A model generated the notes under the pieces. It made no database searches, was not told the origin of the DNA, and saw only the letters and a program-made list of their open reading frames with translations. Below are positions 1 through 60,272 of a stretch of DNA of 64,000 nt, piece after piece (positions within the stretch are counted from its first letter, which is position 1; the number at the start of each line of letters is the position of its first letter). The position numbers and the translations under genes are program-made. Origin of the DNA: Candidatus Omnitrophota bacterium (GTDB lineage Bacteria; Omnitrophota; Gorgyraeia; Zapsychrales; Fredricksoniimonadaceae). The stretch is taken from NCBI GenBank assembly GCA_015232565.1, contig JADFZK010000003.1:64540-128539 (forward strand), read 5' to 3'.

Positions 1-3000
1 GCAAATATGCCGGACAGGATGCCCAGCAAACGGCCCGCAACACTATCCGGCATTTCCTGCCAGCCCCGGGTAATGGTCCGCAAGGCGGCCCGCGGATTCA
101 GGAAACTGCGGTCGAAATACTGCAAGGTGCCTTCGACCGTAGCCGCAAAATAGATCCAGATCGACCGGAAAATTCCCGCATTCGGATACTGCCGGAAATA
201 CTTGGCCTTCTGGTTCTTGATCTTGTCGACCAACAGCGCCAGAGTGATCGACTGGTTAAACACGATCGAGACCCCAATGAATAACCCCGCCCACATCAAC
301 GACTGGTACGGCATACTGCTGGAAAAGAGCATGATCGGCAAAAGCGCCAGATTGACCGCGGCCGACAAATGCTTGGCATAGAACTGCTCTTTTACCAGGC
401 GCTCCCGCTTGGCGTACCACGGGACCGTGGGGTTGATCGGGAAATCATCCAGGATATCGGATCTCCAGCGCTCCACATTGCCCCAGCGCGTCCAGGCATT
501 CTGGGCCTGGGCCAAATTACGTTCAAAACTCTCCTTAAGATCAACATAAGGCGCATATTTGGTAACTCCGCCGCCCAGGATAATACGGGCCTGAGTCATG
601 CCCAAAGCCGACATAATATCCTCGGAAGCGAAATCCTGGGCAAATTCGTAACCACCGGAACGCAAATATTTTTCGATCATCCGATTGCCCCGGCCGATCT
701 CCCGGGCGGCAGTGGAGATCTCCAGAAGCGGCATATAATCGTTCTTGAACCCGTACATGGAAGAACAAATACTGTGCCCGTAATGGCCGGAGAACCCTTC
801 ATTGAACAAACGTACCCGGTCCCAGGCATTATGCGCCTCGCCGGCCGCGTACATAAGCGGGGTATCCACCAGCTCCAGCACGCAGTGGGCCGGCTGTACA
901 ATGTCTACCAGAGGATTAATGAACTCCGCGATCATATACGGATACCGGGCCGCCGCAGTACGCGAAATATAGCTGTCGCAATCGTAGGACATCACCACAT
1001 GGCCTTCTTCGAAGAAAATACGGCTCGTCCAGTTGCCGGCCTTGGCGCGCGTACCGGCGGTACGGTTGGTTTCGTGATAACGGATAATATCCTTGAGGAA
1101 AAGCTGTTTGCCATTGTTGGGATATCTTTTCCAGTCCGGATGATTGGCCGGCTTCTCAAAACCCTGGGGATACGAATCGCGGTCAAAACCATGCAAATTC
1201 TGTAAACGGGACCGCACCAGGTAATGGATCTCATCCTTGTTGTGTTCGCGATCCAGCATATATTCCATCTCGGCATATGGCGTATAACCATGGGTATAGA
1301 GGTTATTCATACCCGAGGTCAGGCCGATCAAAGTCTGCAGATGCTGATTGGCCCAGTCCACAATAATGGTCCGGAACAGCGGTTGGGATTCACCAATCTG
1401 AACCATGTCAGAATGCAATTCTGCTCCGTTAAGAAGCCGGATCAATTGCGGGCGCATAACCTCGGCCACTTTATCCAGGACCGTAACGAACTCCGGATTC
1501 TCCAGGACCTCGTTGATAACCGACTCATCCCCTTCAGGAAAAAGCTCCGGCGCCAACTGGTTACGCAGAGCCAGTTTCACCGCCGCGGGGTCGGCCACCA
1601 CACCCTTCATTGCCTTGGCGATCGCTTCTCTGGCCCGGGTTTCGGAAGGCTGCCACACCCCCATCAAATACGCCGCGGCCATAACCCGGCCAAACCCGGT
1701 GGGATTGATCAGGATCGCCCAGTTCAGGATCGATTTGCGCTGGTGCGGCGCCGCCCCCTCGAACTCCGCAGCATAGAACATCTGTTTACTGCCGCCGTTC
1801 CGGTAAGCGTTACGAAAGTTCCGCGGGCCGTCAAAGAAGTTGTCATAGGATTCATAGATCTCTTGCCAGGTATACTTGATCTGCTCATCCGGCAGAGAAA
1901 AGAACACATTGGTCGAGATCGGGATACGGAGGAAACTGTGGCGTTTCGGCTTTTCCACAGTACCTCTCGGGCGCGAATAGACTATCAAGCTCTCCAGGAT
2001 CTCCATGATCGAATAATTTACAAACAGGGTACAGTTAAGCACGAACATGGTAGAGGTTAACAGCATCAACGCCGATCCGCCCACCAAAAGCCCCTTGACC
2101 GCGCAAAACGCCAGGAGCGGAGCGACGAACAACATCAACCAGCCTTTAGGACTCTTGGTAACATCCTTAATGCGCAGTTTAAGCACCAGGGACACCAGCG
2201 CCGCCCCGATCGCCAGGAAATTGCCTGCCGTCGGCAGGTAACTGCTGGCGCAACCGCTCAAGACCCAAAAGACCGCCAGATAAATAAAGGTAGCGGTGGG
2301 CGTACCTTTCTTGAAATACTGCCAATGCGCGGCCATCTTGGCCTTTACGCCGGGAGATCTGTTGGTATTAAGGCTCCGGTAAAACCTGCCCCCGGCCACC
2401 GACAGCAAGACCAGCGCGACCAGGAAAAGCAATATAGGCGCCGTTTGCAGGAGCGGGATACTGGCAAAACAACCCTCCGCCAAAACCCGCGGCAGAAGAT
2501 TCATAAAGAACGGCGCGATCCCCGCGAAGATATAAAGGTTGGCCACCACCGAGAAAACATCGTTAAGGATAAACCACAATTTGGTGCGCCAAATGCCTTC
2601 ACTGCGCGGATCAATACCCGGCCGGCAGAAATTGAACATATCGCCGGCGAATCTATAGGCCGCCTTACCCAGGGCCGGCAGCCAGACCATATTCTTTTCG
2701 CGATCACTCTCGGCACGAGCCGGCGCATCATTGCGCGCCCGGGTCTCGCGCACCAGCTGTAAAACCTTGATAACGTACTGCGACAAAGGCACAAAGATCA
2801 TTATCGCCAGGCCAAACATCCAGAGCTCCGGCCCGCTGTTATGCGCCATGTTCAACAGCGGGCTCACCAGGGGCGAAGCGTCATGGATCATTTGCGCCTG
2901 CTGGGCGACGGTCAATGGCAAAAGCACCGCTTTCGAGATCAGGATCGCGGCCGTGAACAAACCGCCATAAAGAGTGGAATAGTACGACAGGTACAAAGAC

Positions 3001-4240
3001 CAGAGATTATAAAAATAATTCGGCTTGCGGGCCACCTTCTGATAGGCGGTCTCAAAGAAATAACTTACTTCCTTATCGAAATACGTCAGGCCGTCGCGAT
3101 CTCCCGGCACAACGTCGAGGCGCGCCTCCACATTATATTGCACATTTTTTGCCGGGGTGTGGTCCTTGGCGCTATCCATATACCAGACTTTCTCCAGGAA
3201 AAAATCCATCAGCCGTTCCATGGCGAACACATGCTTGATCCGGTTCTCGCTGTCGGTCATTATCCGGTGGAACGAGATTATGGCTTCGTCGGAAAGCTTG
3301 GTGAAATCCAGCCCGGCGAATTCTTTATGGGCCACATTGTCGCCGGTGACCAGGTAGATATACCAGGGATTCTCCTTGGCACCGCGCGCGGCATGGATAC
3401 TAGCCAGGATCGTGTTAATATCCGCGGTCATAAACATATGAACCTGTTGCGAACCTTGTTTGGCGATCTTCTCGACCTTATCCGCCCCCTTCAGAGCCTC
3501 CTTATAGAAGAACAGGAAGAAATCCAGGACTTCGCGCCACTTGACGCTGTATTCAATAACTTCTTTCAGGGAACGTTTTGTGCCGTCTACGGTCTTAACA
3601 TCGCCCGCAAGGTGCCGGGCCAGGAAGTGCACAAAACCCGGAGCCAGGTCCATCAGGCCAAGATATCTTTCCAGCACAATGAAATGAGTAAGATAACGAT
3701 AATTCTTGATGATCAGGGATTCACTTTTCAGAGTAAGGTCCGCGCCGCGCGTATTAAACGCTAACCCAAAGATCAAGGCCCCGCCCGCCACTACCACCCA
3801 TTCGATCAGCGTAACCGGCCAGGTGAAAGTAACCGCCACGTACACGCCCAGCATGCCGATCACGCCGACCAGGGATTTGAAGACCAGGGTCAGTAACATG
3901 CGAATTGACCAGGACAGGCGCATGGAATTAATCACCTTAACCAGCCCGAACGCATCAAGATGTTTACCGATATTGGTCTTTCTCTGGATCGCGTGCAGGG
4001 CCCAGGTTAACGGGGCGGCGATCATGTACAGCACCCCCCCGACCACGGCCCCCACGACCACGACCGCCAGGAGCTTTGACAGGCCCGGCAGGCCCATAGC
4101 AACCAGGGTCAGCGCCTTAAACCATCCCATGACCACCGGCAGATTAACCAGCCAGATCGCACCCCGAACTATTAAACCCAACACCGCCCATATGCCGAAG
4201 TACCCGGCCACAGCCGCCCAGCGTTTCCAGCCCCTCACGA
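1..4240 (-). other. C-terminal polytopic membrane module of the giant protein, containing a DCD (DxD-like) motif at 966-990
   Basis: There are many 20-25 residue hydrophobic segments (…[21 protein letters not shown]…, …[25 protein letters not shown]…, …[16 protein letters not shown]…, …[29 protein letters not shown]…). The soluble insert …[11 protein letters not shown]… is followed later by …NAWTRWGN…. Confidence 0.4.
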
Positions 4241-13200: not shown

Positions 13201-16200
13201 TCAAACTTGCCACGGAAACCTACGATCGAAGGATCCACCAACATTACCCGGTAGCCCTTATCCAACAGATCATTTACCTTGTCTGCCGTTTCATCATTCA
13301 ACTCAGCCGGCAACCCCTGGGTCTTGCCATACTGGATAGTAGAAATAACTTTACCGTCTATCTTGGCTGCAAAGCTAACCCCTTGTTCCAGGCCAGGCGC
13401 CGCAACAATCTTGTTAACGGTAGCCAATGCAGCCGGCGGAGCCCGGAACGAATCCGGCATAGCCTGGGCACTGGCGTTAAGACTGCCGCCCATCAAACCC
13501 GAAAAGAATAACATAACCCACAGCACTATGGCCCGCGGCAGGAAGCTGGAAAGAACGGCCAGGGCGATACCAAAAACCGGCATCGAAGCGGGAGCTTGCT
13601 GACCCTGGCCTACGACATTGCTGGCCGAGAAGCCCAATGTCGGGGTGACGAACCCTAAATTTGTATTCCGGGGATTTCTTGTATCAGATATATAACCGGG
13701 GAGCTCCGCAGGCACACCTATAGCCGGGACTTTTTGTTCCTCGCGGACACAAACGCCTACCGGTGCATTGCTGTTCCCCGCTGGACGTAAGCTACCGCCA
13801 TCGGGTTGGGCATTTCCTGTTGATATGTCTATTGAGGATCTATTTTCTGGGCCCTGAGCAACACTTTCCACACCCGTCACACCTGGCTTACCCTGCGTGG
13901 ATCCGGAGCTGGTATACGAACCAGTTCCCGCACTCTCCACACCCCGGGCATTGCCGTTTTCGTGAGCGTTGCCGAGGCTGATGCTTAAACCAGCAGGCAC
14001 ACTTCCCACGATCGTGGTGCTACCTTCTCCGCCCTCGGTATTCGCGCTGTATATACACCCAGCGTTCACACTCCGTGCGTAGCGGGTGCCATCATACACA
14101 CTCTGGGCACCTGTACTCTCAATCCAGACTGTTACAGCCTGCGCATTGCCATTGCTGGCGGGCGCAGTCTCTTCAGCTGCGGCAGTACCAGGCACACTCT
14201 GGGCATCCTTACTGGACACACGTGTTCTGGCACCCCTGTCAGAGCGGGCGTTACCGATCACTCCGCATACCCAGGCGTACAGCCTGAGAACGATCGCGGT
14301 GATCTCTCCGTACACTTTCTCAACCGCGGGCACAATACTGGCACCCTTGTTTGCAACAGTGTACAAAGCACTTCTAACCTGAGCCCAACTACGGCTCACA
14401 GAACGGGCACTACGTGCAACATCGACAGTAACCGCGGTATTAACGCGGGCATTCGCTACTGGCACTGCATTTGCTTCATCTACAATAGGCACAACTTTAC
14501 TCGTATTCGCTACTGTACTACCATTACCCTTGGCGTGATTGTCAGCCTTCGAACCATCAGCCTGGGTATGAGCCGGTTCGCCGCTTGCACTGTTAATGTT
14601 GACTGCCTCAACCTGCGCTTTAGCGCCATCTACCATTGCACTGCTTGCTTCATTCACTACTGCACCACTTACTTCATTCGCTACTGCACTGCTCACTTCT
14701 TCTACAACATTCGCTACATTTGCTTCTGTGTTACCGTCCGTTCTTTCTTTTTCAGCACCAGCGATCCCGGACAGACCTTGCGGTCCACTGTTGCTCTTGA
14801 CTGCGTTTACGTTCAACTTCTCCGCGGCACTCAGCCTGCCGTAAGCTCCCAACACTACATTAACGACATAACCAATACTGTCTCTCGTGAATTTCAGGAC
14901 CGCTCCGGCTATGAGAGATAGCCTGCGGTCTTTGATACGACCTCCATCGCCCTCACTTGACTGTTTTTCTTCCAAAGTCGGACCCTTGCGGCGTCCGTAT
15001 ATAAATCTGGCACCACGACCGGCCAAAACAGCTACCACGCCATATACAACCGGTAAAACACCCGGAGGCAGAGCGCCCCCGCCCGACCCGCCGGCTGCGA
15101 AGGCATTGCCAATAAAGCTAAAGAAACTCATGAGGAACAGGACCACGGGCAAAGCGCCCGAATGAGGTGTCATTGGGGTCGTACCCGGCACTTGCGGCAT
15201 AACTGGTACCGCCGGCATTGCCGGAACAGCCGGCGCGGCAGGCATTACCGGTGCAACAGGTGCCGCTGGTGCGGTTGGTACCGCTGGCGCGGTCGGGGCC
15301 GTAGGTGCATTAGGTCCGGGTGGTGCTACCGGGCCGGTTGGAACAGTAGGACCGGTAGTTCCTGGACCGGCAGGCGGTAAAGTATTATTCGCGGCCAGAT
15401 TGGTGGTGGGCGCAGTAGGAATAGCCAGCGGATCAGCTGTTAACGGAGCCGTAGTATCCCTATTGGGCTGGTCACTATTGGCCCGCAATAATTCCGGCAA
15501 GCCATAAACCAGCGTTTCCCCCTCTCTGGTGAACAAAGGTTTGCGTGCCAACTGTTTAGCATCCTCAATGACCTCACGGCTATGCTGTTGCTCAGCTTGC
15601 GCTTTAGATCTGGCGTCAGCCGCCGAGACAGGTTGCTGACTAGCGGCAAAGAGCGAGCCCAAAGCCAGCCATATCGGGAGCGTAGTTCCCTTGGTACCGG
15701 TTGGCGAAGATGGTGCGGCCGGTGAACCCGGCGCTCCAGGAGCAACCGGCTTTGTTGCCACACCAGCGGGACCAGTTGCGAAGGTAAGCGCTTCCTGGTC
15801 AATCTCCATGTGCAGAGCCGCCAAAACATCCATTTTGGCCTTAACATCCGCAATAGCATTCGTAACTGCTTTGGTAACACCCGGCTCAATTCTAATAGCG
15901 TCTTCCAAAACCTGGACAGCTTCAAAAGATTCGTTTAAAGCCGTAGGATTACTGCCCAACATACCCAGCAAAACCTCAGCATTGCGAGCTTGCCTTGCCA
16001 AACGTTCGACATTAAGAAGTTGCACTCCCTCATCTTCACCGAGGGTGAGAGCAAAACTATCCAAATCCGCCTTCAATTGTGCAAGCGCAGAGCTGGCCGC
16101 AGTTCTGGCATTATTGAATTTGTCCGCCGTTATTTCATTCTTCACCACCACCACTTTATCTGGATCGTCTACCAGTTGACCCAGACGAACCTCCATATCA

Positions 16201-31200: not shown

Positions 31201-34200
31201 GTTCTTTGATTTTGCAAATCCCCTGAAACAGACGCATCTTTTGTAGACTTGATTTGCCGATCAAGAGCGGCGATCGTACTCTCTATGCCCCGCACCACAG
31301 CCTTTACCTGCGCCGCCACCCTCGGATTATCAACCTTCTCCCGCAAGCCCTGGCGCAATAATGCGTCCGGCTTGCCGCCTATCTGTAACGCCTCCACATC
31401 TTTAACTACAACCGAGGCCATTTCGCTGGATATCCTGTTTTCTGCCAGGGCTTTCTCCAGGACACCGGCGACTGCCTTAACCGCTACCTCCACGCTCTGA
31501 GTATTTGGTGACCGTAGCAATACTAATTGCTCCGAAACTTTTTCAATTACATCATTGGCCGCGCTGGCGGCAGAACTTACCGCCCGGTCGCCGGAATTAC
31601 GTAACGGCAACAATTCCAACTTCCGAGCCTGCAGGCGGATCTTTACAAAATCTTCTTTACCCGCATTGTCTGTGGCTGGCTTTACACCGCTGGCTCGCAC
31701 AAAAGCTGTGTCCAGATAAAAATCGCCCTCGGACTTTAATGCAACGGCCTTTTCACGTGCGGCTTTCGCCTTGTCTGTTTCACCGGAAGCTTCCAGAGAA
31801 TTGGCGCGGTCCAGCAAAACCTCGGCTTCAATAAGAATTTTCCGGCCCAGCGCCCTATCCAGCTCCACCGGATCTTTTGAATTTTTCAGCACATATTCCT
31901 GCTCACCCAACCGGGCACTCTGTGCCGCCTGATAAGCTTGATTGGCATTATCTTTAAGCTTGGAAATTTCTGGCGCGCTTGCACCTTTTTCCGCACCAAG
32001 CTGTAATGCTAATTGGGCTTGCTGTAATTCCGCTTCGCGCAGACGACTGACGGCTCTCTGCTCCGCCATGGAGGCAAAGACCTTGGGCGCCGCCACTGCC
32101 GGAGCTGGCGCAACTATTGGCGCCGGTACGGCAGAAGGCAGATGAACAGCGGCCGGCTGAGGCACAGGCGCCGCTGACGCCGCTGGAACCGTAGCCGCGG
32201 CTTCTGCGGCCTGCCGCTGTTCCATGTTTTTGCGAATGCCCTCTATATTCTTTTTCAATCGTAAAATCTGGGCACCCTTGTCATAATGGCCCTTTGTTTT
32301 GGGCTTTAGTTTCCCCAGATCAGTTGTCGCCTGGTTGAGCAATCTCTCAAGATGTGCTAATTCTTGAGCCGGAGAACGCCCCTGTGCGGGCTTTGCTGTG
32401 GCCATCTTGGCAGAGGTGCCATCAGCCTTAGGCTTAACAGTCGGCGTGGAAACCACCGCATCCGCGGGACGAGCCGCCGGAGCCATTTCGGCATCGGAAC
32501 GGGCCTGACCAGCGGCCGGTTCTAATTGCGGAACGCCCGTTTCGGCCCGGCCGGCTTCGCCGGGTTTAGCTACCTCGGACGGCCTGGACGCTCCAGGCAA
32601 AGAAGCTGACGGTTCATGTGCCGCCGCTGGGGCCGCGGCCGGCTCAACCGCCGCAGAGCCCGGCTTGCCGGCACCCGCAACATTAGCCGATTCAGGGGCA
32701 GAAGAAGATTTGGGAGAAAGCTCAACAGAATTTCTAGCCAGCTCCGGAGCAGGAGAAGCCGCCGCTGGGCTGGCTGAAACCGGTGCCGCCGCAGAGGCTG
32801 AGGCCGCGGCCGGCTCAGCCGCTGAAGACCCTGGCTTTCCGGCACCCACGGCATCAGCCGGTCCGGAAGCAGAGCCAGATTTAGGAGCAAGAGCAGACGC
32901 CGTCGGAGCCGCAGCACCCGGCACAGGAGGCAGAACTGCAGGCGCCGCCGCCGGAGCTACAACCGGTGCAGAAGGCGCCGCCGCGGGCGTTCCCGCCGAA
33001 GCACCCGCCGTTGAAGCAGGCGCCGAAGCCGCGCCGGAACCCGCCGGTTTCGCCGCCGCTGGCGCAATAACGGGCGCCGCAACAGGCGCCGGAACAGGAG
33101 GCATAACTGCAGGCGCCACCACCGGTGCCGCCGCACCCGGCACAGGAGGCGCCGTAGCGCGGCCCGCCAGATTAACAGGCGCTGGGAGCGGGGCTGGAAC
33201 AGCCGCCACTCTGGGCGCCGGCGCCACAGTTGCCGCAGGCGCACCCGCCGCCGGGCCAGCTACAGCCGGAGCGGTGGCCGGCGCAGGCGCCAAAGCCCCT
33301 GCCGGTACCACAGTCTGCAACAAAGACACCAGCTTGGCCTGCTGTTGCAGCTGCCTTTTGAGAGACGGCGATTTACCCATATTCCCGCCCGGCACAAAGA
33401 ACAAGCTTACAAAAGCGCCCTGCTTGGCCAGCTCGGTGCGCTTAACCTTAACCATATCTTCAATAACTTTATTGTCTATGGCCGCATTGCCGCTAAGCAG
33501 TCCGGCCATATCGGCCCGAGCTTCTTTTTCCAAACGAGCCACCATCCCCGGAGCAATATAAGGAAACGCCTTGTACACCAAAGCGTCGTTCAAGGACAAT
33601 ACGCCAATAGTACCCGCCATACCAAAGCCATGATAAATCCCGGAAAGACGCCCGGCGCTCCTGGCCAGCAAGCCGGTGGGCTTGGCCGAGATCGCCGATA
33701 ACGGCATCTGCAACACACCCAGCGTGGGCCCCAGGCTGTAACCGCTTTGCAAGCCGCCCACCACGTCTTCCTTTAACATCTCGCCAAAGCCGGTCCGTTT
33801 CAGGCGGCCTTCTTTGTCGAATTGCGGCAAGCCGCTGCCATCCAGCGCCAGCGGCCGGAAAGTATTAAAAGACTGCACCCCGGCCTCAGCCCAGCTGATG
33901 CGGCTCCCGATCGTATTCTCTACTCCGTAATTCACTATTCTCTGCACCGGCAGGCTTACCAGGCGCCAGGCCGGCATCATAACCGCAAAGTCCAGGGAAG
34001 CGGCGATCGACATCTTTACGCTCATCTGCGGATAAAGGCTCATGTTCAAAAGGTTGGCATCCAGCTGAACCATGTCTGGCCCCACCATTACATTGCGCGA
34101 CCAGGTCTGTAAGACCGGCCGGGTAATAGCCAGAACGCTCAGCAACCCGCCCGCCGTAGCACCATAACCCACATAGCCCAGGCGCTCTTGCCAGGACATG

Positions 34201-37200
34201 TTTTTCTGTGGATCGGCATACGAAGCCGCCCACCCGCCAGCCGCGCCAACAGCGGTTCCGCCAGCCAGCCTTTTTACCGCGCCCGACGTTAAAAGATCTT
34301 TAAAATACACACCGGCGGTTATCTGCCGGTTGGCCGCGACTGTGCCGGCAGTCTGGAACGGCGCCGAAGAATACGGTGAGAGCTCAAAAACAGCCTTCAC
34401 CCGGTCTACAAAAACATCCAGCCGCGACGTAGGCGGACCCATGGGTTTAGCCGCCGGCTCACCCCACACCGCCCGTTGTGCCCAGCGCGGCACGATCTTA
34501 ACGCCAGCCGAGGCCAAAAGACCAAAGCCGGCATCAAAAATCATCTGCCGGTTGATTACATTGGTATCGCTGTAATTTCTCTTCCAGGCCTCGTTACCGC
34601 CTTGGGCCAGATACCGGTCGGTCATACCACCGCCCACACTCACCAGCGTATAGCCCGCCGCGTCGTAAAGAGAGCCCCAGGCATTGGTTTTCCAGAAACT
34701 ACCAGGTAAGATATTCTTTACACCACCCACCACCAGGCCGCCCGCCACGCCCACACCGGCATCGACCAGTACTTGCCGGGTCTTGATGTAATCGTTCCAC
34801 ACATCGCGGCCGCTAAACTTGGTAAGCACCGCGCCGCGCAGTACATTCACCGCCATACCGCCAATAGCTTTACCCGCCAGTTCCCGGGCGTAACTGGATT
34901 GTATGCCCGCGAAAGACCGTGATAACTGGGCCCCGCCGCCCAAAGCCAAGCCCGCCAGAGCGCCCCAGCCCCAGCTCTCGGCTCCCTTAATAAAACCGTT
35001 ATCTTCTTTACGATACAATTTCTCGTTCACCACGCTGTCTATGCCCAGCTGGATATTGCCCGCGGAAAGAGCCGAATTAACAAAAGCCTGCCGAGCCGAT
35101 ACCTGGGCGGCATCTTTTACCGCCGCCGGCAACATGCTCCTGGCCAACAAAGTGGTCACCGGGACTATCGCCAATATGGCGGCATCCTGCTTGAGCGTTA
35201 ACAATTCGCCGTTAACCAGCAATGAACCCGCGTTAGACAAAGCCGCCACGCGCACGCCGCTGGCCATGGATTCCAGCGCCCGGGCCGAGAACCCATTGCC
35301 CATCACACCCGGGTTCCGCATACCAAGCACAGCCAAAGGCACGAAAGCGGCGCCGATACCCGCATCTTTGAGGATTTGCCCGCCGGTTACATAATCAAAT
35401 ACGGTTCCGCCTTGCGCCCGGTTGCTGGTAACGCCATAAGCCACATTAGCAGTCGCTCCGCCAGCGGATAAAACCGTTAAGCCCACCGCCCATTTTTGCC
35501 CCTCAGTCAAAACCACAGGAGTAGAGGCTCCCAGCTTGGAAGCGACAAAAGTAAACCCTCGGGAAGTCGCCACGGCATTGCCCAAGCGCGGAACACCACT
35601 GCTAATTGCTGTTGAAGTTCTCGCCGCCAAACCACCGGCACCAAAAACGCCCAACCCCGAGATAGCCTTGGCACCCAGATTAAAAATGCCCATAGCCAGA
35701 ATAGCCGAATTCATTTCATCTTGACCTAAGCCCCTGCCGGTGTTGTACAGGCTATAATTATCCAATGCTACAGTTGAAACGGCCCCGATGGCAGATCCAG
35801 CTCCTGCAACACCCGTCAACCTTCCTCCCAAATACGCGTAGGCACCCTTACCCAAAGTTCCACCCGCATAAAGGAAAAACGAATCCCAACCCTTATTCTC
35901 TGGCCGAACCGACGCGTTCTCAGCATCACTAAAAATGTCCAACACATGACTATAACGCTCGGGTTTATTTTCATCGGTATACAACCGGCTATACCACCCG
36001 TTATAAACCCAGGTCTTACCCAGATCTCGCATCTCTTTGTTGCCTACATAAGGGATAAGACCACCCGCATACATAGCGGCCCCTATAAAGGGCTTTGTAG
36101 CTCCCCATAACGCTTCACCCGCTTTTCGTGAACCCCAGGACCATGGATTATAGGAAGGGTCATAAGTCTTGTCAGACTTGAAGCTGTTAAAGAATACTCT
36201 GGCCCCATTCGTCTCAAATATCTCCGCCACTCCATTTGTAAGGCCGGTAATATTCTTGTCCAGCTTGCGCATATCAAGCAAAATGTTCTGATAATAATCC
36301 TTTTGCGCATCGGTCAAATTGCCGGCGTTGATCTCACCTTGCAATGTAGCGCCAAAATCTTTCATTTCCTGTTGTCTTTGCTTTTCATTCTTGGTCAAAG
36401 CATCTTTCAGTTCGGAAGACCGCTTGTCCAAATTACGCTTAAGATCTATGGCCGGGATCTGGTTTTCTTCACCATTACCGGCAATAACTATAGATTTTCC
36501 GGTCTGTTCGGCCAGGTCCCTCTTCTGACGCTCAATACTTTCCAGCTCGGCCACAATAGCATCGGCCTCGGCCTTCATTTTTTGCCCCGCCGCCCAGAAT
36601 TGCACAGATAGGGGAGCCGCCTTAAGCACCTCGGCGATAACCTTCCTTTGTATATCGTCTTCGTTAACCCACAGTTCTTTCCCGTGGTCCGGCACCGTTA
36701 ATTTGTCTTCCAGTTTGGGGATCACCGCATTATCCATCAACTCCGGCAAACTATTCTCAAGCATGAACTGATCGAGCTCACGCAGTTTGGCGGCATAATT
36801 GTCCTGGGCTTCCTTAAACAACTTCTTCTCTTTGGCATCGTTAACCACAAGCCCGAACCAGTCGAAAGTATTCATTTTCTTATGAAATTCAAAACGACCG
36901 ATATAGAACATGTCTCTGGCGTAAGACGTCTGCTCCTTCAGCGCCGAAAACTGCGCCTGTTTCTCGGGAGTCATAACCGGAATCGGTAAATCCAACTTGG
37001 GCGCCGCATCTCGTATAGCGGTCTTGACGATCCTGGCGCCGTCATAATTACGGTAATCAACTATAGCCTGGCCATTCTCATCGAAAAAGATCGATTTCTG
37101 GCCCGACCCCAAAACCGCCGTCACCAGGTTTACCGGCTGAACACCATCGGCAGTCAGGCCGCGTTCACGCTGATACGTCACCTGTTCTATACCCTTACCG

Positions 37201-40200
37201 CCCAAACCAATAACCGCTACCTTGCGCAGATCACCATGGGCGGCGCCGCTAAAGTTGTAAAAATCATAAGAATCCACCATCAATCTCTGTTTACCGGTGC
37301 CCCATAAGGCGCCATCCGAATACACATTGTTCACAGTTAAATATCGGCGTGCTATTTCGGCGCCCTGCGCCTCTTCCCGGGTTTGCGGAGCCGACTTAAA
37401 TTTACTCTTGGCCTCCAGCCCTTCACTGGCAAAAAGCGGCAAAACAGCCTTACCGTAAACCCCCACCGTTATAACCGGCGAACCGTTCTCAATACGAGCG
37501 CTGGCCGGTGTAAAATTCTGCCCGCCATCCACCGATAAGCCATTAACCTGGAATTGATCCCAAACCGCGCCCACCACCCAACGCCCTTTTTCATCCTTCA
37601 CATAATCGCCGTACTGAGAGATCTCTTGCCCGGCCTTCATGTTAAATACCACCTTCTTATCCACCAATCCTCTTCCACTAGTTAATACCGGCGTAACCAT
37701 TGCTATGAGCGCATCGTCCAGAATGGCTGAAGTTGTAACAACCGCCGCATAGTCCAATTCGGAACTGCCATTCTCCTTAAAACGCACCTGATCGCTGTCT
37801 ACCCCAAAAGCATAACGCGACGCCTGCACAACCTTGCCATTCTTGTCCACACCCACCTGAAACACCAGGTTAGGCGTGTCATCTATACGGGTAATGTTAA
37901 AATCCCTGAAATCTCCGGAGAGCGTAGCCTGCGCAACATTAAGATTAGGCAAAGAAAAATCGGCTTTCTGCATACCATCCAAAGAAGCTATCCCGGCGTT
38001 TGTAGTCAGCAAACCTTCCCGTGCACGCACCGGGATCTTTAAAGCATTCAAGCCAGCCGTCGATTTCTCCTCATTCTTTTTTTCCAGCGGCTGTTTTATA
38101 ACCTCCAGCGACGTCTGCGGAAGAAGCGCAGGATTACTTCCACCAACAAGAATAGACGGATTACCAAATTCATCCAAACCAGCTCCAACACTGGCCTCAA
38201 CATCATTCAACAGCAAAGACTTAACATCAAAAGACTGCCACTTCTTTCCGCCATTGGTCACCCAAAAGTCTACTCCGCGCAATTCAGCTTTACCTTTAAG
38301 GATTTCCTTGTCGTCAACCGCGTACTTCAGGAACGACGCATCCGTGTTAATATTGGACCACCCCGACCGTAAACCCGGCGTGACCACAAAACCGTTCTGG
38401 TTGATCTCGGCCGTTTTCCCGTCCAGACTGCCCTTTTCGTTATTTACGGCTATGACCTTACCGGTAACTGCGAACTCGCCATTTTCCTGAACCTGGCCCT
38501 GCACGCTGGAAACAAAATCCTTAAAATTGAGGCCGCTGAAAGAATGGTATACTCCAGAGAACATGGGCGCAAAAGAAACCGACTGTTCCTGCAGGCTTTG
38601 CGGGCTGGTAACATTATCAAAATTTAGAACTGCGATCTTGGCGCTGTCAAACCAGCCTACCCGAGAGGCGTAGATCAAAGGCAAGACTTCGCTCGTTAAA
38701 AAACCGGATCCTGGCGGACGCAAGCCGCCATTACTATTATCCCCGGCCGCCTCCGGACTGCCCGTCTTGTTATCCGCATTGCTCTCCGGCGGTTTCTGCA
38801 TTATCTGCGAAGTGTAGAAAAATCTTTCCTGGCCATCCGCGCTGGCCTGAGCATAAAGATCGGTAAAATTCTCCGTCCGTCCGTAAAATACCGCGCTATC
38901 AACTAACTTCCCCTTGGCGTCGAAAACTTTACCGTCCCCTTTTATGCGCTGTGTAATGGGCGTAAACCTTTCATCCAGGCTCCAGGTGCCGTGTTCCCCG
39001 GTAAGACCCTCGGTGCCGCTTAAGGTCCAGCCCCGGGGCTTGCCTTCCGGTTCCGCGGTCTCGTTAACAGTCACCGCATGGCCGCTTTTTGTGCCATCCG
39101 GCAACACCATTACCATGCTCTTGGTGCCCGCCGTTAAAGAGTTCCAAAAAGTTTCCTGCCGCTCCACTGTACTTAACGGGAACAAAGCCCCGTTCTGCCC
39201 TATCTCCAGGCCGCCGCCCCAGAACGTATTGTTGGCACCGTATAAAGATATCGGCGATCCTTCGGTTATGGTCGGCCCGAAATAAGCCTTGGCACCGGGA
39301 TTAAAATTGATATCCTGCAAAGCGCCTTTCTGGAACGCAAACTCCAAAGAGCCGAAAGCCTGGCCAAAAGCGGTTTCACCCGGAATTTTGTCCAGGTTGA
39401 ATATTGCCTGGGTATTTATCGGCTTGGAGGCCGTGCCACCCTCAGATTTGCCTGGCAAAGCCAGCAATCCGAAGCCAACACCACCCAGCACCAGGGTATT
39501 GCCTTCCCCGCGAGCGCGGTCCAAATAAACCCTATGCTCCGGAGAATCCAGGTCCTCCCTATATGTAGTATAGGTACCGTTAACAGTCGTGCCATCCACA
39601 TTGCCCAAGGGCGGCACATACCGGAACTCGCCGTTTTTGTCTACTAACAAATGATTAACTATGAAATCCTCCACTATGACCTTGCTGGCGTCCGCAGGAT
39701 TCTGCATTAAATTACGACGTTCCAACGTACTGAACACTTCGGCAGGTTGCCAGTTGCCATTCTCCTGTTGGTCCGCCATTATGCCGGAGGCATTACCCAT
39801 TCTGTCTCCGGTAAGTATAAAGCGGGTAACCGGCAGGTCAGACTTGCCGTCGGCGCTATAATCGGGAGTAGTAAAGACCATCTCGTCATCTTGCCAGGCT
39901 GAATCCCGACTGTATACTCCTTTACCGTCACTAAAGTTAAGTTCCGGCAGGAAAGCATTGTTGCCCGCCTGTATCCATACCGGCTGGCTGGCGTACAATA
40001 TGGCGCCCGTCCGGTTATCCAAAGCCACCGGAGCATCGCCTTCCAGACGGTAATGAAAATTACCGTATTGCTCGTTAACCCGGGTGATCTGACCGTAAGC
40101 ATTGATCACCGGAGTTAGCCCGGCCTCAAAGCGCGAAACGAATTGCGGGCCGTTAGGATCCGGCGGCGAAGAAAGCGCTTTACCGAGCTCGTTCCAAACA

Positions 40201-43200: not shown

Positions 43201-46200
43201 ACCGCCGCAATATCCTGCCCGAACACATATGTGTTCGCCATCTTCACTATATTACCGAACGAGGCCGCACCTACCTGCGAATACTGATCGCTCCGGTAAT
43301 TCAGGCTGGACAGTTCCCAGCGCCGGGTAGAATCCAGGATCCATTGCATTTCCACGTCTTCATCACTACGGCGCTGATCGTCGGGCAAAGCGGCGTTGGC
43401 GGCTTTGGCCTCTTCCTTTTGCTTCTTCGCGGTAATAGCGGCCTGAATAGAAAAGCCCGACATACCCGCCAAATGCTCGCCAAAAGCCAGCATTTCCAAA
43501 GGATTAGCGAAACGAAAACTGGTCTGGGAATTACCAAATTCGAGGTACCGGGTGCCGTAAACAATGTCTTTACCCATTACAACTTGAGAAAAAAGAGCGT
43601 CCGGAACCGCATTGTCACCGGGAAAGATTATGCCGTCCAGAGCCGCAACCGCCCTGGCCTTCTCCAGCGGTTTGGCCCCATTATCCTGGGCCCCCTTTGC
43701 GGCTTGATCATGAGTATAGCCATTGTCCGCACTTCTGCGCTGGATCTTGCCCTTGTTCTTTGGGTCATTGCCAAAGATAATCGCTTTATCCCATAATTCC
43801 CGAGCCTCGGGATGATCCTCGGCAAACTTGCAATCCCAAAGATCAAGTTTTTCGTCCACCTCACTCTTGATACTGGAATAATCATCCTTCTTCGCCAGAA
43901 TTGCAGTTCTTTCTTCCTCGGTTTTCGCGGCCATCAGTTTAGCTTTGTCATCAGGAGTTAAGACGCTGGAGAAATTGTCTACTGCCTCCCGAACATACTC
44001 ACTTTGCGCCTGGTCGCGCTCTTTCATATATTGATCCGCCAGCCGTGCACCCTGCCGCACATCTTCGTTGATCTTGGGCTGGTCCAAAGCATCCAAAGCC
44101 CCCAGCGTAACACCGGCCATAAAATTAGCCATCGTGCCCGCCACTATATTGTATTGCGCCGCCAGATAAGCATGGTTACGGGACTGATCATCTTCGCCGA
44201 TGATCTCTTCCCGCAAAGTGTCAAAAGCCCAGGCCGAAAGCGAGCTTAATACCGCGCTTCCCACGCGCACCTTGAGGTTGTCCCACACACTACCGGGGCC
44301 TGCGGCCAGTCGTTCGCCCGGGGTTTGCATAAGGTTACCCGCGCCATAGGAAACCACCCCCGCCACACCCTGCCCTACCGCTTTGGACGCCAAAGACTCC
44401 GGATCACCGCCCACCAGATAACGCGCCAGACCGCCCGCCAACTGGCCAATAGAACTTTGCGCTCCGGCCCGGGCAAAGCCCTTTAAAGCCGTCCAGACAT
44501 TGCTCCGGGAAAAAGAAATCTCCGACCTCGCCAGCCGGTCATTAGCCACCGCATCCCGCGCGGCCATGACCTCAGGTTTAGACACATCCAGCTTGCCGTC
44601 CTTAAACATGCCGTTCAGATCGGTCACATGAGCCTGCATTTTGTCCAGGCCTTCCAGCCGGGTCATCTCTAGTGTTTCCTTTTTGGTAAGGCCAACCTCG
44701 CCATCAAAAATGTTAGCGTCGTCTTGAGTTTTAAGTAAAGCCAGCCGTTTCTGGGCGTCATTGTCCATAAGGTTTTTGAACTTGCCGGCTTTTTGCTCCT
44801 TCGCCATATCGCCGGCGATCTCATTTTTGGTAATTTGCTCGGATTCCGCCAAAAACGCTTTGCCGGCGGCATCTCTTTGCCCCTGGTTAAAGTCCCGGAA
44901 CTCCGGGCTGGCCAAGATTTCTTTGGCCAATTTCTGATCGTGCTGGGCATCCCCGGTTCTTTCAATAAGGCGGTCGTTTACCTTATCCGCACCGTTTATG
45001 GGTTTGCCATTATCATCGAATTCCGGAACGAACTGATCCTTGGATTTCACAATGGCTTCGTTCTCAGCCGCTTGCTCCCTGGAGGCATCCTGCATAGTGT
45101 CAGTCTGCACCCCCACCATATCTTTAAAATAAGTAATATCGTGCCCGGCAACCTGGGCGGCCACGGCGTCAAAGGCCACCGCGGTTCCGGTAATGGCCAG
45201 GCCGGCGGCCAGCGAACCGGCCACCCCGCCTATCGTCTGGCTGGCAATGATACAACCCTTGTCGTCCTTGTCGCAATCAAAAGTCTCGGCTATAACCAGC
45301 TGAACCTCGTAGCTTACCCCAGCGCCTACCAGCGCTACTGCGAAAGACGTGGCAAAATCCTGGACCATACCGGAAGCAAAACCGGCCAGAGCACTGGTCC
45401 CGGCGTCCTTGGCGTTCTCGATCCCCGATACTCCGCCGCTCACACCAACGCTCAAGGCTGTACTTAAAGAAATACTAAGAATGGTTCCCGTCTTTTCCGA
45501 ACAGTTGCCCGACATTACGCAAGCTTGCGCTACCGCACCTACGAATTTACTGATCCCGATGCTCGCTATGGCCATGGCGATCACGGTTTGTATTTTGGTC
45601 GCGATCATGCCCATCTTGGCCAGGAAGATCAGGATCTTTTGGATCGCGTTAAGTGTTTCTCCCGCTTTTTGAGCCGCTATGGCGGCATTCGCCGCACCGC
45701 TCAAAGCCGCGCCCACGCCAAGGGAAACCACCAGCATGGCAAAGCTCAACCCCACATCGGTCCAGATCTGGCTGGTGCTCACCAGGCCCGGCAGGTCGCC
45801 GGAACGGTCGCGCCACTTGTTGCCCCACACAAAAGTAAGGGTGGTGTCGTCCACCGCGGTAAAATCCGCCCGCACAAAAGTGCCCATGTCTTTCGCCAGC
45901 GCAAAACCGGAGAGTTTGGCAATAAATTCGGCTTTGGGGCTTTGGCTGATCTTGCCGATATCGTTAAAGAAAACCGTGTCTTCCGTTACCTTGGTGACCG
46001 TAACGAAGTGCTCCTCTTTAAAATGCGCCACGAACGGCGTGCGGAGTTTTACCACATCATCCGGGGCCAAACGGGCACCGCTGTATTTCAGGCCGAAAGC
46101 CTTGGCGGCCTGGCTGATTGAAAAGAGGGAAATCTTAAGTTTGGGTTCCCCGGCCTTGATAACATTGCTCAAAAGGTCGGTAGAAATGGTAAGCACCGCC

Positions 46201-46913
46201 AGCTCTTCCAGCGGCTTATTTATCCCGGCATTAGCCAGAATGTCCTGCAGAGCATAAACGCCGCAATTCAGCACGTTCAGGCTGGGCTTATTAAGCCATA
46301 CAGCGATATCTTTGATTTGCGTGGGCGTAAACTTGGCCAAAGCGTTGATCAACAGCGCTTTGCCGTCTTTTTTCTGGTCGTCAAGTCTAAGCGATACGCT
46401 CTCGGCCTTCTGGCGGTTAACGTCGGTCAGCAACTGGTCCACACTGCCCGCTACCTGGCGAGCGGCCAGTTCGGCCGGGGTAATATCCGGGTTCTGCATT
46501 ACCAGCGGAGCCTTGTTGCCCCAGATAATGGCCGGATTATAGTTAAACGCCCAGCTGATCTGGTCGGGGATGAAAACACAAAGCACCGTAAGCGCAATAG
46601 CCCGGATCCAGTTATTGAACCGGGAAGCAAACTGACCTTCCGGGTAACCGGCCGTTACACCTTCGCCAGCAGGAGGAAACTGATCGCCACCCGGCACGTT
46701 AGCATTATAGCCAGCAAAACCGGCGCCAGCCAGGTCCGGAAATTGCCTAACCAGCTCGGAATCCGAAAGTTGCACATTGTCATTTGCCGCAGAGGACGGC
46801 TCAACCGGGGAAATTTCAGCAGATTGGGGGAGGGCAAAAGAAGAAATATCCTCTTTATTATTAAAAGAAGATTCAGAATTGTTAGAAGACTGTGGTTTAC
46901 CGTTTTCAGTCAT
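1..46913 (-). CDS. Giant multidomain protein, partial. The N-terminus is in the window; the C-terminus runs past the window start. At least 15,637 codons.
   Basis: No stop is reported in minus frame 2 (coordinate 46913 mod 3) across 46.9 kb. All listed minus ORFs in 1-46913 lie in the other two frames, and the plus ORFs are short antisense shadows. ATG at 46911-46913 follows an in-frame TGA 48 nt upstream. GC3-rich codon periodicity holds throughout. A reverse-complement read gives continuous protein-like sequence with domain motifs. Confidence 0.8.
9060..9900 (-). other. Clan GH-A (GH5-like) TIM-barrel glycoside hydrolase domain within the giant protein
   Basis: …[19 protein letters not shown]… carries the NEP acid/base motif (codons at 9586-9606). 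…LNWYRH… follows, then …[12 protein letters not shown]… carries the nucleophile motif (codons near 9285-9300). The spacing is typical of GH5-type enzymes. Confidence 0.55.
13600..15430 (-). other. Low-complexity Ser/Ala/Val/Asn region followed by a Pro/Ala/Thr-rich linker (15160-15430) in the giant protein
   Basis: The translation shows …[23 protein letters not shown]… repeats and …[43 protein letters not shown]…. The DNA has imperfect 24-bp tandem repeats at about 14590-14720, and the Arg-rich plus-strand shadow ORF 15162..15380 overlaps it. Confidence 0.55.
21850..22100 (-). other. Degenerate M23/LytM-like or hybrid-barrel segment
   Basis: …[73 protein letters not shown]… follows the M23 beta-barrel spacing but lacks the HxH metal ligands. 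Confidence 0.25.
24000..24480 (-). other. GNAT-like acetyltransferase segment
   Basis: …[82 protein letters not shown]… has the beta-strand/V-shaped fold pattern and an R/Q-x-x-G-x-G/A acetyl-CoA motif (KLGLGAAL). Confidence 0.4.
25626..25640 (-). other. HExxH (HELMH) zinc-metallopeptidase-type motif
   Basis: Minus-strand codons CAT GAG CTT ATG CAC at 25626-25640 give …[16 protein letters not shown]…. This is a motif only. Confidence 0.25.
29330..29370 (-). other. P-loop-like motif (LAMAGGKTT) resembling helicase / SecA motif I
   Basis: Codons GGC GGT AAA ACC ACG at 29343-29357 on the minus strand give GGKTT. The surrounding sequence is …[42 protein letters not shown]…. Confidence 0.25.
32150..33330 (-). 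other. Ala/Pro/Val/Gly-rich low-complexity linker of the giant protein
   Basis: Minus-strand translation is dominated by AP/APA/PAV repeats (…[32 protein letters not shown]…). The plus strand here gives the A/G-rich shadow ORF 32665..33561. The DNA is built from GCC/GGC/GCG triplet runs. Confidence 0.6.
45100..45800 (-). other. Cluster of hydrophobic segments (predicted transmembrane anchor region) after the peptidase-like domain
   Basis: Long runs of A/G/V/I/L-rich segments (…[20 protein letters not shown]…, …[21 protein letters not shown]…, …[14 protein letters not shown]…) read between verified landmarks at 45748-45812 and 45098-45146. Confidence 0.4.
45950..46330 (-). other. Papain-fold (C39-like) cysteine peptidase motif region at the N-terminus of the giant protein
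   Basis: Read on the minus strand: ...[16 protein letters not shown]... (Cys codon at 46263-46265), then about 80 aa later ...[21 protein letters not shown]... (His near 46010). The spacing and context match a C39-type Cys/His dyad. Confidence 0.4.
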
Positions 46914-47074
46914 ATTTATACCGAGTTTGTGAAACAATGGAAGTATAGCACATATATGCTGTCAAGCAAATTTTTGGCAAAAATAAATGCCCTCACAACC
47001 CATTTCTCAACAATGCCTTACATTCCATGCAGAATCTTTTTTCCAAAAAAAATTGCATTAAATCTCTTAATATA

Positions 47075-47117
47075 AAAAAAACAAAAAAAAGATTGCAAAA
47101 CTCTGTTTGGACATTAA
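47075..47117 (-). promoter_or_regulatory. Putative sigma70-type promoter for the giant gene, with an adjacent TGGACATTAA half-site
   Basis: On the minus strand, TTGCAA sits at 47093-47098, an A/T-rich 17-18 nt spacer follows, and TATATT sits at 47069-47074. An A/T tract lies upstream. The half-site 47108-47117 exactly matches the right half of the 59188-59210 palindrome. Confidence 0.25.
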
Positions 47118-47160
47118 ACAAAAACCAAAGCCCCCCTCCCTGACCCGCCCCACCAGGGGG

Positions 47161-47305
47161 CGGGTATCAAGCAGCATGCAGAATCTTTTCACGAATAACT
47201 GCTCCACCAAGAGCGGGCATCAAGTAGCATGCAGAACCTTTTCACGAATACCTGTCGTATCAAGAGCGCGTATCAGGTAACGTGCAAACCCCTTTCACAA
47301 ATACC
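47161..47305. repeat. Three tandem repeats of about 53 bp, sharing the GCATGCAGAAYCTTTTCACGAATA core. A fourth partial core copy lies at 47026-47040.
   Basis: 47161-47213 and 47214-47266 match at roughly four of every five positions. 47267-47305 is a decayed third copy. Confidence 0.6.
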
Positions 47306-47340
47306 CTCCCCCTCTGTGGGGAGGGTCAGGGAGGGGGACA
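47304..47340 (-). terminator. GC-rich hairpin (CCCTCCCC / GGGGAGGG stem, 6-nt loop) followed on the minus strand by UAUUUGUGAAA, copy A
   Basis: An inverted repeat with an 8-bp G/C stem sits at 47304-47325, and a U-rich tail follows in the minus sense. The element is duplicated at 47507-47545. Confidence 0.3.
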
Positions 47341-47354
47341 TGCTCACAAAATAT

Positions 47355-47373
47355 ATTGTCCAGACTGGACAAT
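47355..47373. promoter_or_regulatory. Perfect 9-1-9 palindrome ATTGTCCAGACTGGACAAT (core TGTCCA-N3-TGGACA), copy 1
   Basis: The inverted repeat was checked base by base. It is duplicated at 47559-47577 and related to the site at 59188-59210. Confidence 0.6.
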
Positions 47374-47506
47374 CTCTTGAAACACAAAGACCCTAAATGG
47401 TTTACAGCACCAAAGAGGGTCGCTTTTTACTTCATAAAGAATGTCCAAACACCCAAAAGACTTCCTTAAAACAGAAACTTAATCATCAACAAATCCCGCT
47501 CACAAA

Positions 47507-47545
47507 ATACCCTCCCCCTCTGTGGGGAAGGTCAGGGAGGGGGTT
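47507..47545 (-). terminator. GC-rich hairpin plus U-rich tail, copy B, about 40 nt downstream of the tadC-like stop codon
   Basis: The sequence matches copy A with one stem mismatch. In the minus sense it is followed by TATTTTGTGAG. Its position just after the stop at 47584 fits an intrinsic terminator. Confidence 0.35.
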
Positions 47546-47558
47546 GCATAAAGCACTT

Positions 47559-47577
47559 ATTGTCCAGACTGGACAAT
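47559..47577. promoter_or_regulatory. Perfect 9-1-9 palindrome ATTGTCCAGACTGGACAAT, copy 2
   Basis: The sequence is identical to copy 1 and sits about 7 nt from the tadC-like stop. Confidence 0.6.
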
Positions 47578-47583
47578 TTTAAA

Positions 47584-54499: not shown

Positions 54500-54519
54500 T
54501 CCGCCTCCTTTAGCAAGCG

Positions 54520-54864: not shown

Positions 54865-54903
54865 AAAAGACCTTGTGGCCGTTGGGCCCCAACCTTCAAC
54901 TGC

Positions 54904-60264: not shown

Positions 60265-60272
60265 GAAGCTCC

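Follow-up and report, generated by a model that had tools for sequence, protein, structure and literature searches.

What kind of protein, if any, is encoded by a bacterial reading frame that stays open for almost 47 kb? We addressed this question for a 64,000-nucleotide stretch of DNA (hereinafter, the window) from a Candidatus Omnitrophota bacterium (GenBank assembly GCA_015232565.1, contig JADFZK010000003.1, positions 64,540 to 128,539 of the forward strand). The initial annotation, made from the sequence alone, had noted in the window a single minus-strand open reading frame (ORF) of at least 46.9 kb, or at least 15,637 amino acids (aa), open at the window edge. The frame is real, continuous and coding-like, and the gene is a new, divergent member of the published class of giant ORFs that is common within the phylum Omnitrophota, so that no new category has to be introduced for it.

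Proteins of this size had been described in the initial annotation as rare. The gene is indeed very large and real, but genes of this kind are widespread within the tiny, probably predatory bacteria of the Omnitrophota, where ORFs exceeding 20 kb in length occur in 77 of the 116 Velamenicoccia species genomes and in other classes of the phylum (Seymour et al., PMC10066038). These giant ORFs contain few domains with an annotation and show poor conservation (PMC10066038). The full-length giants often possess an N-terminal C39 peptidase domain and many transmembrane (TM) regions; genes for a type II secretion system (T2SS)/T4-like system and small genes with class III signal peptides precede them, and PilZ genes usually follow (West-Roberts et al., 10.1101/2023.11.21.568195). 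In a recent survey, 916 long proteins have been catalogued and 5,761 proteins of at least 10 thousand aa (kaa) have been clustered (Nielsen & Lui 2026, 10.64898/2026.06.07.730766).

A continuous reading frame of 15,637 codons

Translation of the reverse complement of positions 3-46913 yields 15,637 codons and 0 stops, precisely as had been anticipated, against ~707 stops expected for a frame of this length from the regional base composition. The other two minus-strand frames over 1-46913 contain 33-82 stops per 3 kb. Elsewhere, no frame stays free of stops for more than 850 aa on the minus strand (outside the giant-gene region) or 392 aa on the plus strand, in agreement with the earlier statement that the plus-strand ORFs between 1 and 46913 are all below 400 aa. 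The in-frame codon usage correlates with that of eight neighbour genes at r = 0.91 for the whole gene and at 0.71-0.93 for individual blocks of 1,500 codons; in the two wrong frames, the correlation is ~0. The GC content at the three codon positions is constant along the gene. Because the codon usage matches that of the neighbours throughout, the entire 46.9 kb can be considered coding-like DNA of a single genome.

1..46913 (in frame 3..46913), minus strand: giant gene, 5' part; begins with the ATG at 46911-46913, has no stop and runs past the window edge

The nearest upstream in-frame stop is a TGA at 46962-46964, 16 codons before the ATG at 46911-46913. The closest relatives (L002, MNENLNPQSS; L001, MNKKLDPQSP; see below) share the aligned start methionine and have near-identical first residues, so this ATG is likely to be the true start. 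Given that the frame runs off the window at base 1, only a 5' fragment of the gene is present and, as had been surmised, the full gene is larger still.

The protein had been further described as distinct blocks separated by low-complexity linkers. Such linkers, mainly Pro/Ala-rich, do exist but cover only ~5% of the giant protein (833 aa in 8 stretches). The Pro/Ala and 24-bp repeats had also been flagged as a concern for the assembly, but these repeats are minor: the 24-bp tandem repeat at 14637-14699 consists of 2.6 copies, and the other tandem repeats within the gene do not exceed 59 bp. Comparison of the giant protein with itself using BLASTP detected no internal repeats, even at E <= 1.

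An N-terminal module with a C39 peptidase domain

The initial annotation had called for profile searches, which identified a C39 peptidase near the N-terminus but nothing else above threshold across ~15,000 aa. Peptidase_C39 (PF03412) is the only Pfam family that passes its cut-off (aa 216-339, E 5e-8, 33.3 bits vs a cut-off of 22). The domain belongs to an N-terminal module with the following parts:

46629..46913, minus strand: polar N-terminal tail, aa 1-95; variable among relatives, without a classical signal peptide
46545..46622, minus strand: first hydrophobic helix, aa 98-123; conserved, with the family signature SRFxxWxR
45819..46481, minus strand: C39 cysteine peptidase domain, aa ~145-365; delineated by the Pfam match at aa 216-339, alignment, AlphaFold2, Foldseek and profile comparison
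45144..45776, minus strand: Gly/Ala/Ser-rich helical hydrophobic bundle, aa 380-590; conserved CVMxGxCSEK motif, low AlphaFold2 confidence

A search with the first 1,200 aa as the query retrieved 11 proteins that are 34-44% identical to the window protein, all with PF03412 and almost all partial; those with names come from Omnitrophica/Omnitrophota metagenome-assembled genomes (MAGs), except for one labelled Elusimicrobia. In the alignment of these 11 proteins with the window N-terminus (12 sequences, hereinafter A1), Cys217 (46263-46265), His302 (46008-46010) and Asp318 (45960-45962) are invariant, with the cysteine embedded in the motif LNCGVYAL and the histidine in EHFV. The further invariants are the SRF..W.R motif of the helix that precedes the peptidase and a WG.KWRDRS motif after the C39 domain.

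The AlphaFold2 model obtained with A1 reaches pLDDT 80-94 for aa 145-365; the remainder is poor, the bundle being mostly below 60. A Foldseek search of the Protein Data Bank (PDB) with this model retrieved the peptidase-containing ATP-binding cassette (ABC) transporter (PCAT) PCAT1 (E 2e-6), the HlyB/D complex and LahT150 (6mpz; TM-score 0.70, 24-25% identity). In a profile comparison of A1 with LahT150 (6mpz), the EHFV and ND motifs, which contain the His and the Asp, align with the corresponding motifs of the latter. The C39-like domain of HlyB is degenerate and lacks the catalytic Cys. Judging from the alignment and the model, the domain of the giant protein adopts the C39 fold with the catalytic residues retained, and is predicted to be enzymatically active.

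Five or six long helices are predicted after the peptidase (aa 380-623), in the same order of parts as in PCATs. Foldseek aligns 426-484 columns of the model with PCAT1 and HlyB, with TM-scores of only 0.13-0.19, and we make no claim of homology between this modelled helical part and the PCAT membrane domain. No Pfam match to a nucleotide-binding domain, ABC_tran or ABC_membrane was detected in the part of the giant protein that is present, and the NCBIfam match to an NHLP ABC transporter spans the peptidase part only, at 27.6 bits vs a cut-off of 853. A double-glycine leader was also considered as a feature of the family and was discarded: the one good match, at aa 54-64 ahead of the C39 domain, is shared by no relatives other than the two closest, and motifs of this type show no enrichment.

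Relatives of the module across genomes

The scan of GTDB with A1, with one genome per species, yielded 96 module-encoding stretches, nearly all of them from omnitrophotan MAGs; the counts on frames and synteny given here cover the 80 loci kept from these 96 stretches. The window module is at best 50-56% identical to these relatives, so its source species is absent from the representatives scanned. Look-ups of the exact TadC and TadB products, a search for an exact 40-mer and a protein search of Joint Genome Institute metagenomes did not retrieve the source contig either. In 75 of the 80 loci, the frame that the module heads is still open at the end of the retrieved DNA, up to ~3,900 codons. 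Among the five exceptions, at least three (L008, L032 and L080) show a single frameshift or nonsense break after which the frame reopens, and in one more (L061) the contig ends ~580 bp past the stop. The breaks are located at ~10845-10864 in L008, 2875-2879 in L032 and 10252-10627 in L080, and the frame reopens within a few bases; these early breaks could be sequencing errors, pseudogenes or programmed recoding. In the first 3.9 kaa of L001 and L002, as in the window protein, Pfam detects PF03412 alone.

The named relatives of the module and of the adjacent TadB and TadC are overwhelmingly Omnitrophota/Omnitrophica MAGs, in agreement with the placement of the window in this phylum; no rRNA or tRNA gene was found in the window. 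Several module-bearing contigs, including L003 (DYOS01000245.1), L004 and L027, are labelled Caldithrix, Elusimicrobia or 'uncultured Planctomycetales', probably through binning or labelling errors.

The non-repetitive body of the protein

Beyond the module, the protein is non-repetitive and fast-evolving and contains many hydrophobic clusters. A hydropathy scan (Kyte-Doolittle, mean >= 1.6 across 19 aa) delineates ~30 hydrophobic segments, which fall mostly into ~8 clusters, with isolated weak peaks outside the clusters (e.g. aa 6313-6331 and 7542-7560). The overall density, ~1 segment per 500 residues, is within the range for long proteins of Omnitrophota, in which hydrophobic helices occur at ~1 per 400-500 aa (10.64898/2026.06.07.730766). 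Because of the many hydrophobic, membrane-type segments, the product is more readily interpreted as a membrane-threaded protein than as a simple secreted fibre. The main features of the body, with the hydrophobic clusters of the whole protein, are:

aa 105-123; 383-586; 3847-4065 (weak); 7873-7933, minus strand: hydrophobic clusters (Kyte-Doolittle)
aa 10587-10631; 11107-11146; 14235-14960 (dense); 15516-15562, minus strand: further hydrophobic clusters (Kyte-Doolittle)
36954..39497, minus strand: block A, aa 2473-3320, Gly/Asn-rich, probably beta-rich; 24-33% identity to segments of at least 6 other omnitrophotan giant genes (tblastn)
33267..35639, minus strand: block B, aa 3759-4549, with weak hydrophobic segments at aa 3847-4065; 36% identity to L002
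32043..33362, minus strand: largest Pro/Ala linkers, aa 4518-4795 and 4896-4957; the high-GC stretch of the window
23115..23297, minus strand: two hydrophobic segments, aa 7873-7933; a Pro/Ala linker lies before them at aa 7713-7822
13476..15488, minus strand: Pro-rich linker, aa 10476-10594, then hydrophobic pairs at aa 10587-10631 and 11107-11146; includes the 24-bp repeat
228..4211, minus strand: polytopic membrane region with ~14-16 hydrophobic segments, aa 14235-14960 and 15516-15562; end of the fragment

Similarity to the relatives collapses past aa ~600, where three blocks remain. The first (aa 790-1547) is similar to L001 only; the other two are blocks A and B, with a block B core (aa 4150-4470) that is common to at least 6 loci. 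A part of block A (aa ~2974-3322) has matches at four consecutive sites of the L031 giant gene (14690-20062); the block is thus single-copy in the window and tandemly multiplied in this relative. Neither blocks A and B nor their homologues in the relatives match any Pfam family, and the profiles of the blocks have no match in the PDB. The AlphaFold2 model of aa 2500-3050, within block A, was built from a single sequence and is unusable (pLDDT 32).

Over the remaining ~15,000 aa, no Pfam family other than C39 was detected at E <= 0.01, and a permissive rescan in pieces of 2,500 aa returned sub-threshold noise only. Sequence searches of the PDB with all four pieces of the giant protein produced nothing meaningful. 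For the last 1,437 aa (aa 14201-15637), a word-indexed protein search found no relatives, with the caveat that this type of search can overlook distant ones, having missed the relatives of block A (aa 2470-3330) that tblastn detected at 24-33% identity; nor did the last 400 aa have relatives in the metagenomes of the Joint Genome Institute (JGI).

The Tad-type pilus gene run upstream

The giant gene is the last gene downstream of a Tad-type (Flp) pilus run that is encoded on the same strand. The genes of this run, starting from the giant gene, are:

47584-48483, minus strand: TadC-like protein, one T2SSF domain (Pfam); adjoins the giant gene upstream
48502-49359, minus strand: TadB-like protein, one T2SSF domain (Pfam)
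49614-49967, minus strand: small pilin-like ORF (KKAFALVEYMVLIIVVIS) between TadB and the 827-aa gene, overlapping the end of the latter
49952-52435, minus strand: 827-aa protein with a pilin-like hydrophobic N-terminus; conserved in 51/80 loci
52665-54176, minus strand: 503-aa protein with a pilin-like hydrophobic N-terminus; conserved in 40/80 loci
54176..56530, minus strand: six Flp-type pilin genes in tandem (107-135 aa), with a processing motif of the G/XXXXEY type
56890-59145, minus strand: 751-aa ORF heading the pilin run; no Pfam or NCBIfam match

The order and strand of the genes for the pilins, the 503-aa and 827-aa proteins, TadB, TadC and the giant protein are conserved in the relatives. 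In the 80 loci, tblastn detected TadC in 61 and TadB in 57, with the 827-aa and 503-aa proteins in 51 and 40, respectively, and the individual pilins in 15-29. TadB and TadC are 79% identical to those of the omnitrophotan MAG ELA581 (79% for L002). The processing motifs of the Flp-type pilins include KGQSTLEY and KAQNTAEY, and one of the pilins matches the Pfam class III signal peptide family. Farther upstream on the same strand are genes for GspM/PilO-like, PilM-PilN fusion and GspK-like proteins, which resemble T2SS/type IV pilus (T4P) components. None of the 17 genes in the window encodes a prepilin peptidase of the TadV type; TadA, TadZ, TadV and the RcpA secretin were all absent from the window.

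Several other features of this region deserve mention. The pilin-like ORF at 49614-49967 is easily overlooked, being overlapped by a 118-aa ORF in another frame. The 827-aa and 503-aa proteins contain many Cys residues, match no Pfam or NCBIfam family and are possibly TadE/F/G-like minor pilins or tip proteins. The 751-aa ORF has a helix-turn-helix-like N-terminus, internal direct DNA repeats (58445-58730) and a homologue with 50% identity at the same location in L002; the GC-rich hairpin motifs inside it recur in the intergenic region between TadB and the 827-aa gene (49450-49550). At 59509-60929 (minus strand), between the T2SS/T4P-like genes and the pilin/Tad run, there is a type IV toxin-antitoxin/abortive-infection pair, in which the AbiEii toxin is recognised at E 2.5e-26 (PF08843) and the AbiEi antitoxin gives a weak match.

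The leader of the giant gene and a shared palindrome

The space between TadC and the giant gene contains several repeat and hairpin elements, one of which recurs in front of the pilin run:

46914..47583, minus strand: intergenic leader of 670 bp between TadC and the giant gene
59189..59208, no strand assigned: third copy of the palindrome, TAATGTCCACACTGGACATT (85%), just upstream of the 751-aa ORF

In the leader, a perfect palindrome of 20 nt, TATTGTCCAGACTGGACAAT, is present at 47354-47373 and again at 47558-47577, and a C/G-rich hairpin comes after each copy. Its core, TGTCCAnnCTGGACA, has three sites in the window compared to 0.05 expected, and is found also in L002 (9718-9734), where it lies between TadC and the start of the giant gene and differs from the 17-nt form at one position, and in L003 (4-20, upstream of the giant start). 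The palindrome could be a shared operator or a small terminator or hairpin resembling repetitive extragenic palindromic (REP) elements.

On the minus strand, the segment 47345-47120 folds into an extended hairpin, with a U tract after it; the folding energy is -112 kcal/mol (z = -6.75). The C/G-rich arms of 29 nt are 148 nt apart and enclose a 53-nt tandem repeat (47160-47318, 2.8 copies); this hairpin could be a large terminator or an insert similar to miniature inverted-repeat transposable elements (MITEs). An AT-rich, promoter-like stretch (47000-47130) is located past the hairpin and the U tract. Rfam detects no RNA family in the leader or elsewhere in the window. The kilobase around the leader contains 7 terminator-like sites compared to 1.2 expected and, because such sites lie between TadC and the giant gene, the sequence suggests that the giant gene has its own transcript.

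Proposed function and alternative explanations

The Omnitrophota giant genes are among the longest protein-coding genes known, and the window adds one more divergent example. The only part that is conserved across the phylum is a module of ~500 aa, with a C39 peptidase that, judging by its residues, appears to be active; the module shows a tight genomic link to the end of a Tad pilus run, and the sequence that follows it is almost entirely unique, lacking repeats and known domains. We propose that the giant polypeptide is threaded repeatedly through the cytoplasmic membrane, in which case large unique segments would be located alternately inside and outside. The C39 domain would be catalytically competent and might make specific cuts, either in the giant protein or in a partner. 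At the cell surface, the product may act jointly with the Tad pilus when host or prey cells are bound and attacked, a role similar to that proposed for the 39,678-aa protein of Velamenicoccus archaeovorus. We estimate the probability that the gene is a C39-class giant gene of Omnitrophota, with this general model, at roughly 75%; the specific functional steps are more tentative, and we would put them at somewhat under even odds.

A surface, adhesion or host-interaction role had been suggested in the initial annotation and is in line with the literature, which ties omnitrophotan giants to attachment and predation (PMC10066038; 10.1101/2023.11.21.568195); the protein itself offers a C39 domain and neither an adhesion domain nor a repeat. 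For the window gene, such a role is suggested by genomic context and by analogy. Several observations weigh against the proposed model. The 15.6 kaa present yielded no domain that points directly to adhesion or to the degradation of cell walls. A Peptidase_M23 match at aa 8276-8347 (E 0.011; HxxxD present, HxH degenerate) and a GNAT acetyltransferase match (E 0.16, sub-threshold) are not counted as domains, and both leads are unsupported because aa 7501-8700, used as the query for a full HMMER search of 1.84 billion representative proteins, had no relatives at E <= 0.001. SecA_DEAD, which is reported in most full-length giants, is absent from the 15.6 kaa in the window and may lie beyond the edge. 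Positively charged residues flank the N-side of both helix 1 and helix 2, so that the positive-inside rule places the C39 domain on conflicting sides at these two helices. Finally, double-glycine-type cleavage motifs are found at the level expected by chance (strict motif, 2 vs 1.2 expected; loose motif, 4 vs 3.8).

The count of cleavage motifs bears also on the alternative possibility that the giant ORF encodes a polyprotein which, as in viruses, is cut by C39 or other proteases into many membrane and soluble proteins, a possibility raised also by West-Roberts et al. (10.1101/2023.11.21.568195). The intact, invariant catalytic residues are compatible with this scheme, as is the body made of unrelated, non-repeated blocks that are split by Pro/Ala linkers and hydrophobic clusters; the position and copy number of the blocks vary in the relatives (block A is present four times in L031), so the modules could act alone. 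However, apart from the lack of enrichment of double-glycine-type sites, the sole N-terminal site of this type is conserved only in the two closest relatives, a single N-terminally tethered peptidase would need access to sites on either side of the membrane, and no cleavage products have been reported for any relative; we regard a polyprotein as unlikely, although it is the foremost rival as to mechanism. It is rather less likely, in our view, that the module is a part of the Tad machine that processes Flp-type prepilins or other cargo, or serves as a PCAT-like gate without an ATPase, with the tail being cargo or an accessory. The giant gene directly follows TadC in 61 of the 80 loci, the C39-then-bundle order is that of PCAT1 and HlyB, with 426-484 columns aligned by Foldseek, the window genes include no TadV-type prepilin peptidase, and the same palindrome that heads the pilin run stands twice before the giant gene. 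These points are offset by the TM-scores of 0.13-0.19, the low pLDDT of the bundle (mostly <60) and the lack of a nucleotide-binding domain in the part present; moreover, TadV, TadA and the secretin could just be encoded beyond the window, and the terminator-like hairpins after TadC suggest separate transcripts. The specificity also differs: C39 peptidases cut after Gly-Gly, and Flp sites of the KG|QSTLEY type, which are the sites present in these pilins, are normally cut by aspartic prepilin peptidases (Flp/TadV).

Two further explanations were considered. The window is probably derived from a metagenome, and a 46.9-kb frame could in principle be chimeric or collapsed from several genes. Yet a chance junction keeps the frame in 1 case of 3 and would not remove the ~707 expected stops, the uniform codon usage equals that of the neighbours, there are no collapse-prone repeats, and 75 independent assemblies contain the same module at the head of frames that stay open for thousands of codons, which makes an assembly artefact highly improbable. 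A conventional large protein, such as a repetitive adhesin, a fibre of the RTX/Bap type or a nonribosomal peptide synthetase (NRPS)/polyketide synthase (PKS) megasynthase, is the usual explanation for bacterial genes of more than 20 kb (PMC11573180), but the window protein has no internal repeats and has many membrane-type segments. Ig-like, cadherin, RTX, dockerin, TSP3, condensation, adenylation and ketosynthase domains were sought and not found at E <= 5. For the 15.6 kaa present, this explanation is effectively refuted, and its overall probability seems next to nil; the unseen C-terminal part could still hold such domains.

Returning to the C39-class giant model, a more specific and quite improbable elaboration, which we present as speculation, is that the phylum-wide module serves to dock and process the giant protein, linking it to the TadB/TadC platform encoded directly upstream. 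The Tad machine, and not Sec alone, would then insert or export the giant protein, with co-regulation via TGTCCAnnCTGGACA, and an arms race with hosts or prey would have shaped the ~15,000 residues that come next into a fast-evolving, lineage-specific payload for which billions of proteins contain no detectable relative. Experimental handles for the one cultivated relative are provided by the catalytic Cys, the TadC junction and the candidate regulatory palindrome.

Comparison with known systems

The PCATs, such as PCAT1, LahT and ComA, combine a C39 domain with a nucleotide-binding domain and with the six-helix membrane domain of ABC exporters. The window protein shares with them the C39 fold, with Cys, His and Asp as in the active PCATs, followed by a helical membrane region. 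It differs in the absence of a nucleotide-binding domain, in the extra helix and the ~100-aa polar tail before the peptidase, and in the more than 15,000 residues after it; nor does its sequence show an evident oxyanion-hole Gln upstream of the Cys. Hence it is not a PCAT by definition.

Among the giants themselves, the dockerin type (West-Roberts 2023) is marked by numerous dockerin and TSP3 repeats and has few TM helices in the N-terminal part, whereas hydrophobic clusters are found throughout the window protein, and in the part present there is no match to dockerin (PF00404) or TSP3 (PF18884) and no internal repeat. Velamenicoccus archaeovorus LiM encodes a complete Tad complex and a 39,678-aa protein with 42 predicted helices, and the peptides of its giant ORF are 3-fold up in attached cells (PMC10066038). 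Both this protein, the type sequence of the Archaeovorins (West-Roberts 2023; Kizina 2022, as cited in PMC10066038), and, as predicted from hydropathy, the window protein are membrane-threaded giants encoded beside a Tad complex in Omnitrophota, and C39-like domains are reported in some Archaeovorin members. The Archaeovorins, however, are defined by their content of glycosyltransferase, methyltransferase, glycoside hydrolase, NUDIX, HEAT and TPR domains, none of which turned up in the 15.6 kaa present, even when pieces of 2,500 aa were scanned at E <= 5.

The pilus run resembles the Tad/Flp systems of predatory and host-associated bacteria in its multiple Flp-type pilins, large pilin-like proteins, TadB and TadC; the difference is that classical tad loci do not end in a giant gene. 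The combination seen here is that of the C39-class giants (the 'PF03412 architecture cluster' of Nielsen & Lui 2026; the N-terminal C39 is noted also in West-Roberts 2023), which belong to the same phylum, exceed 10 kaa, have C39 as the sole or first Pfam domain, contain likewise many hydrophobic helices, are poorly conserved and are encoded downstream of T2SS/Tad-like and class III signal peptide genes. The window gene exceeds 10,000 aa (the threshold of Nielsen & Lui) and 20 kb (that of Seymour et al.), comes from Omnitrophota, encodes PF03412 at the N-terminus and TM helices predicted by hydropathy, and follows T2SS/T4P/Tad-like and class III signal peptide genes. With an identity of at most 50-56% to any relative found, in the N-terminal module only, it extends this published class by a distant member.

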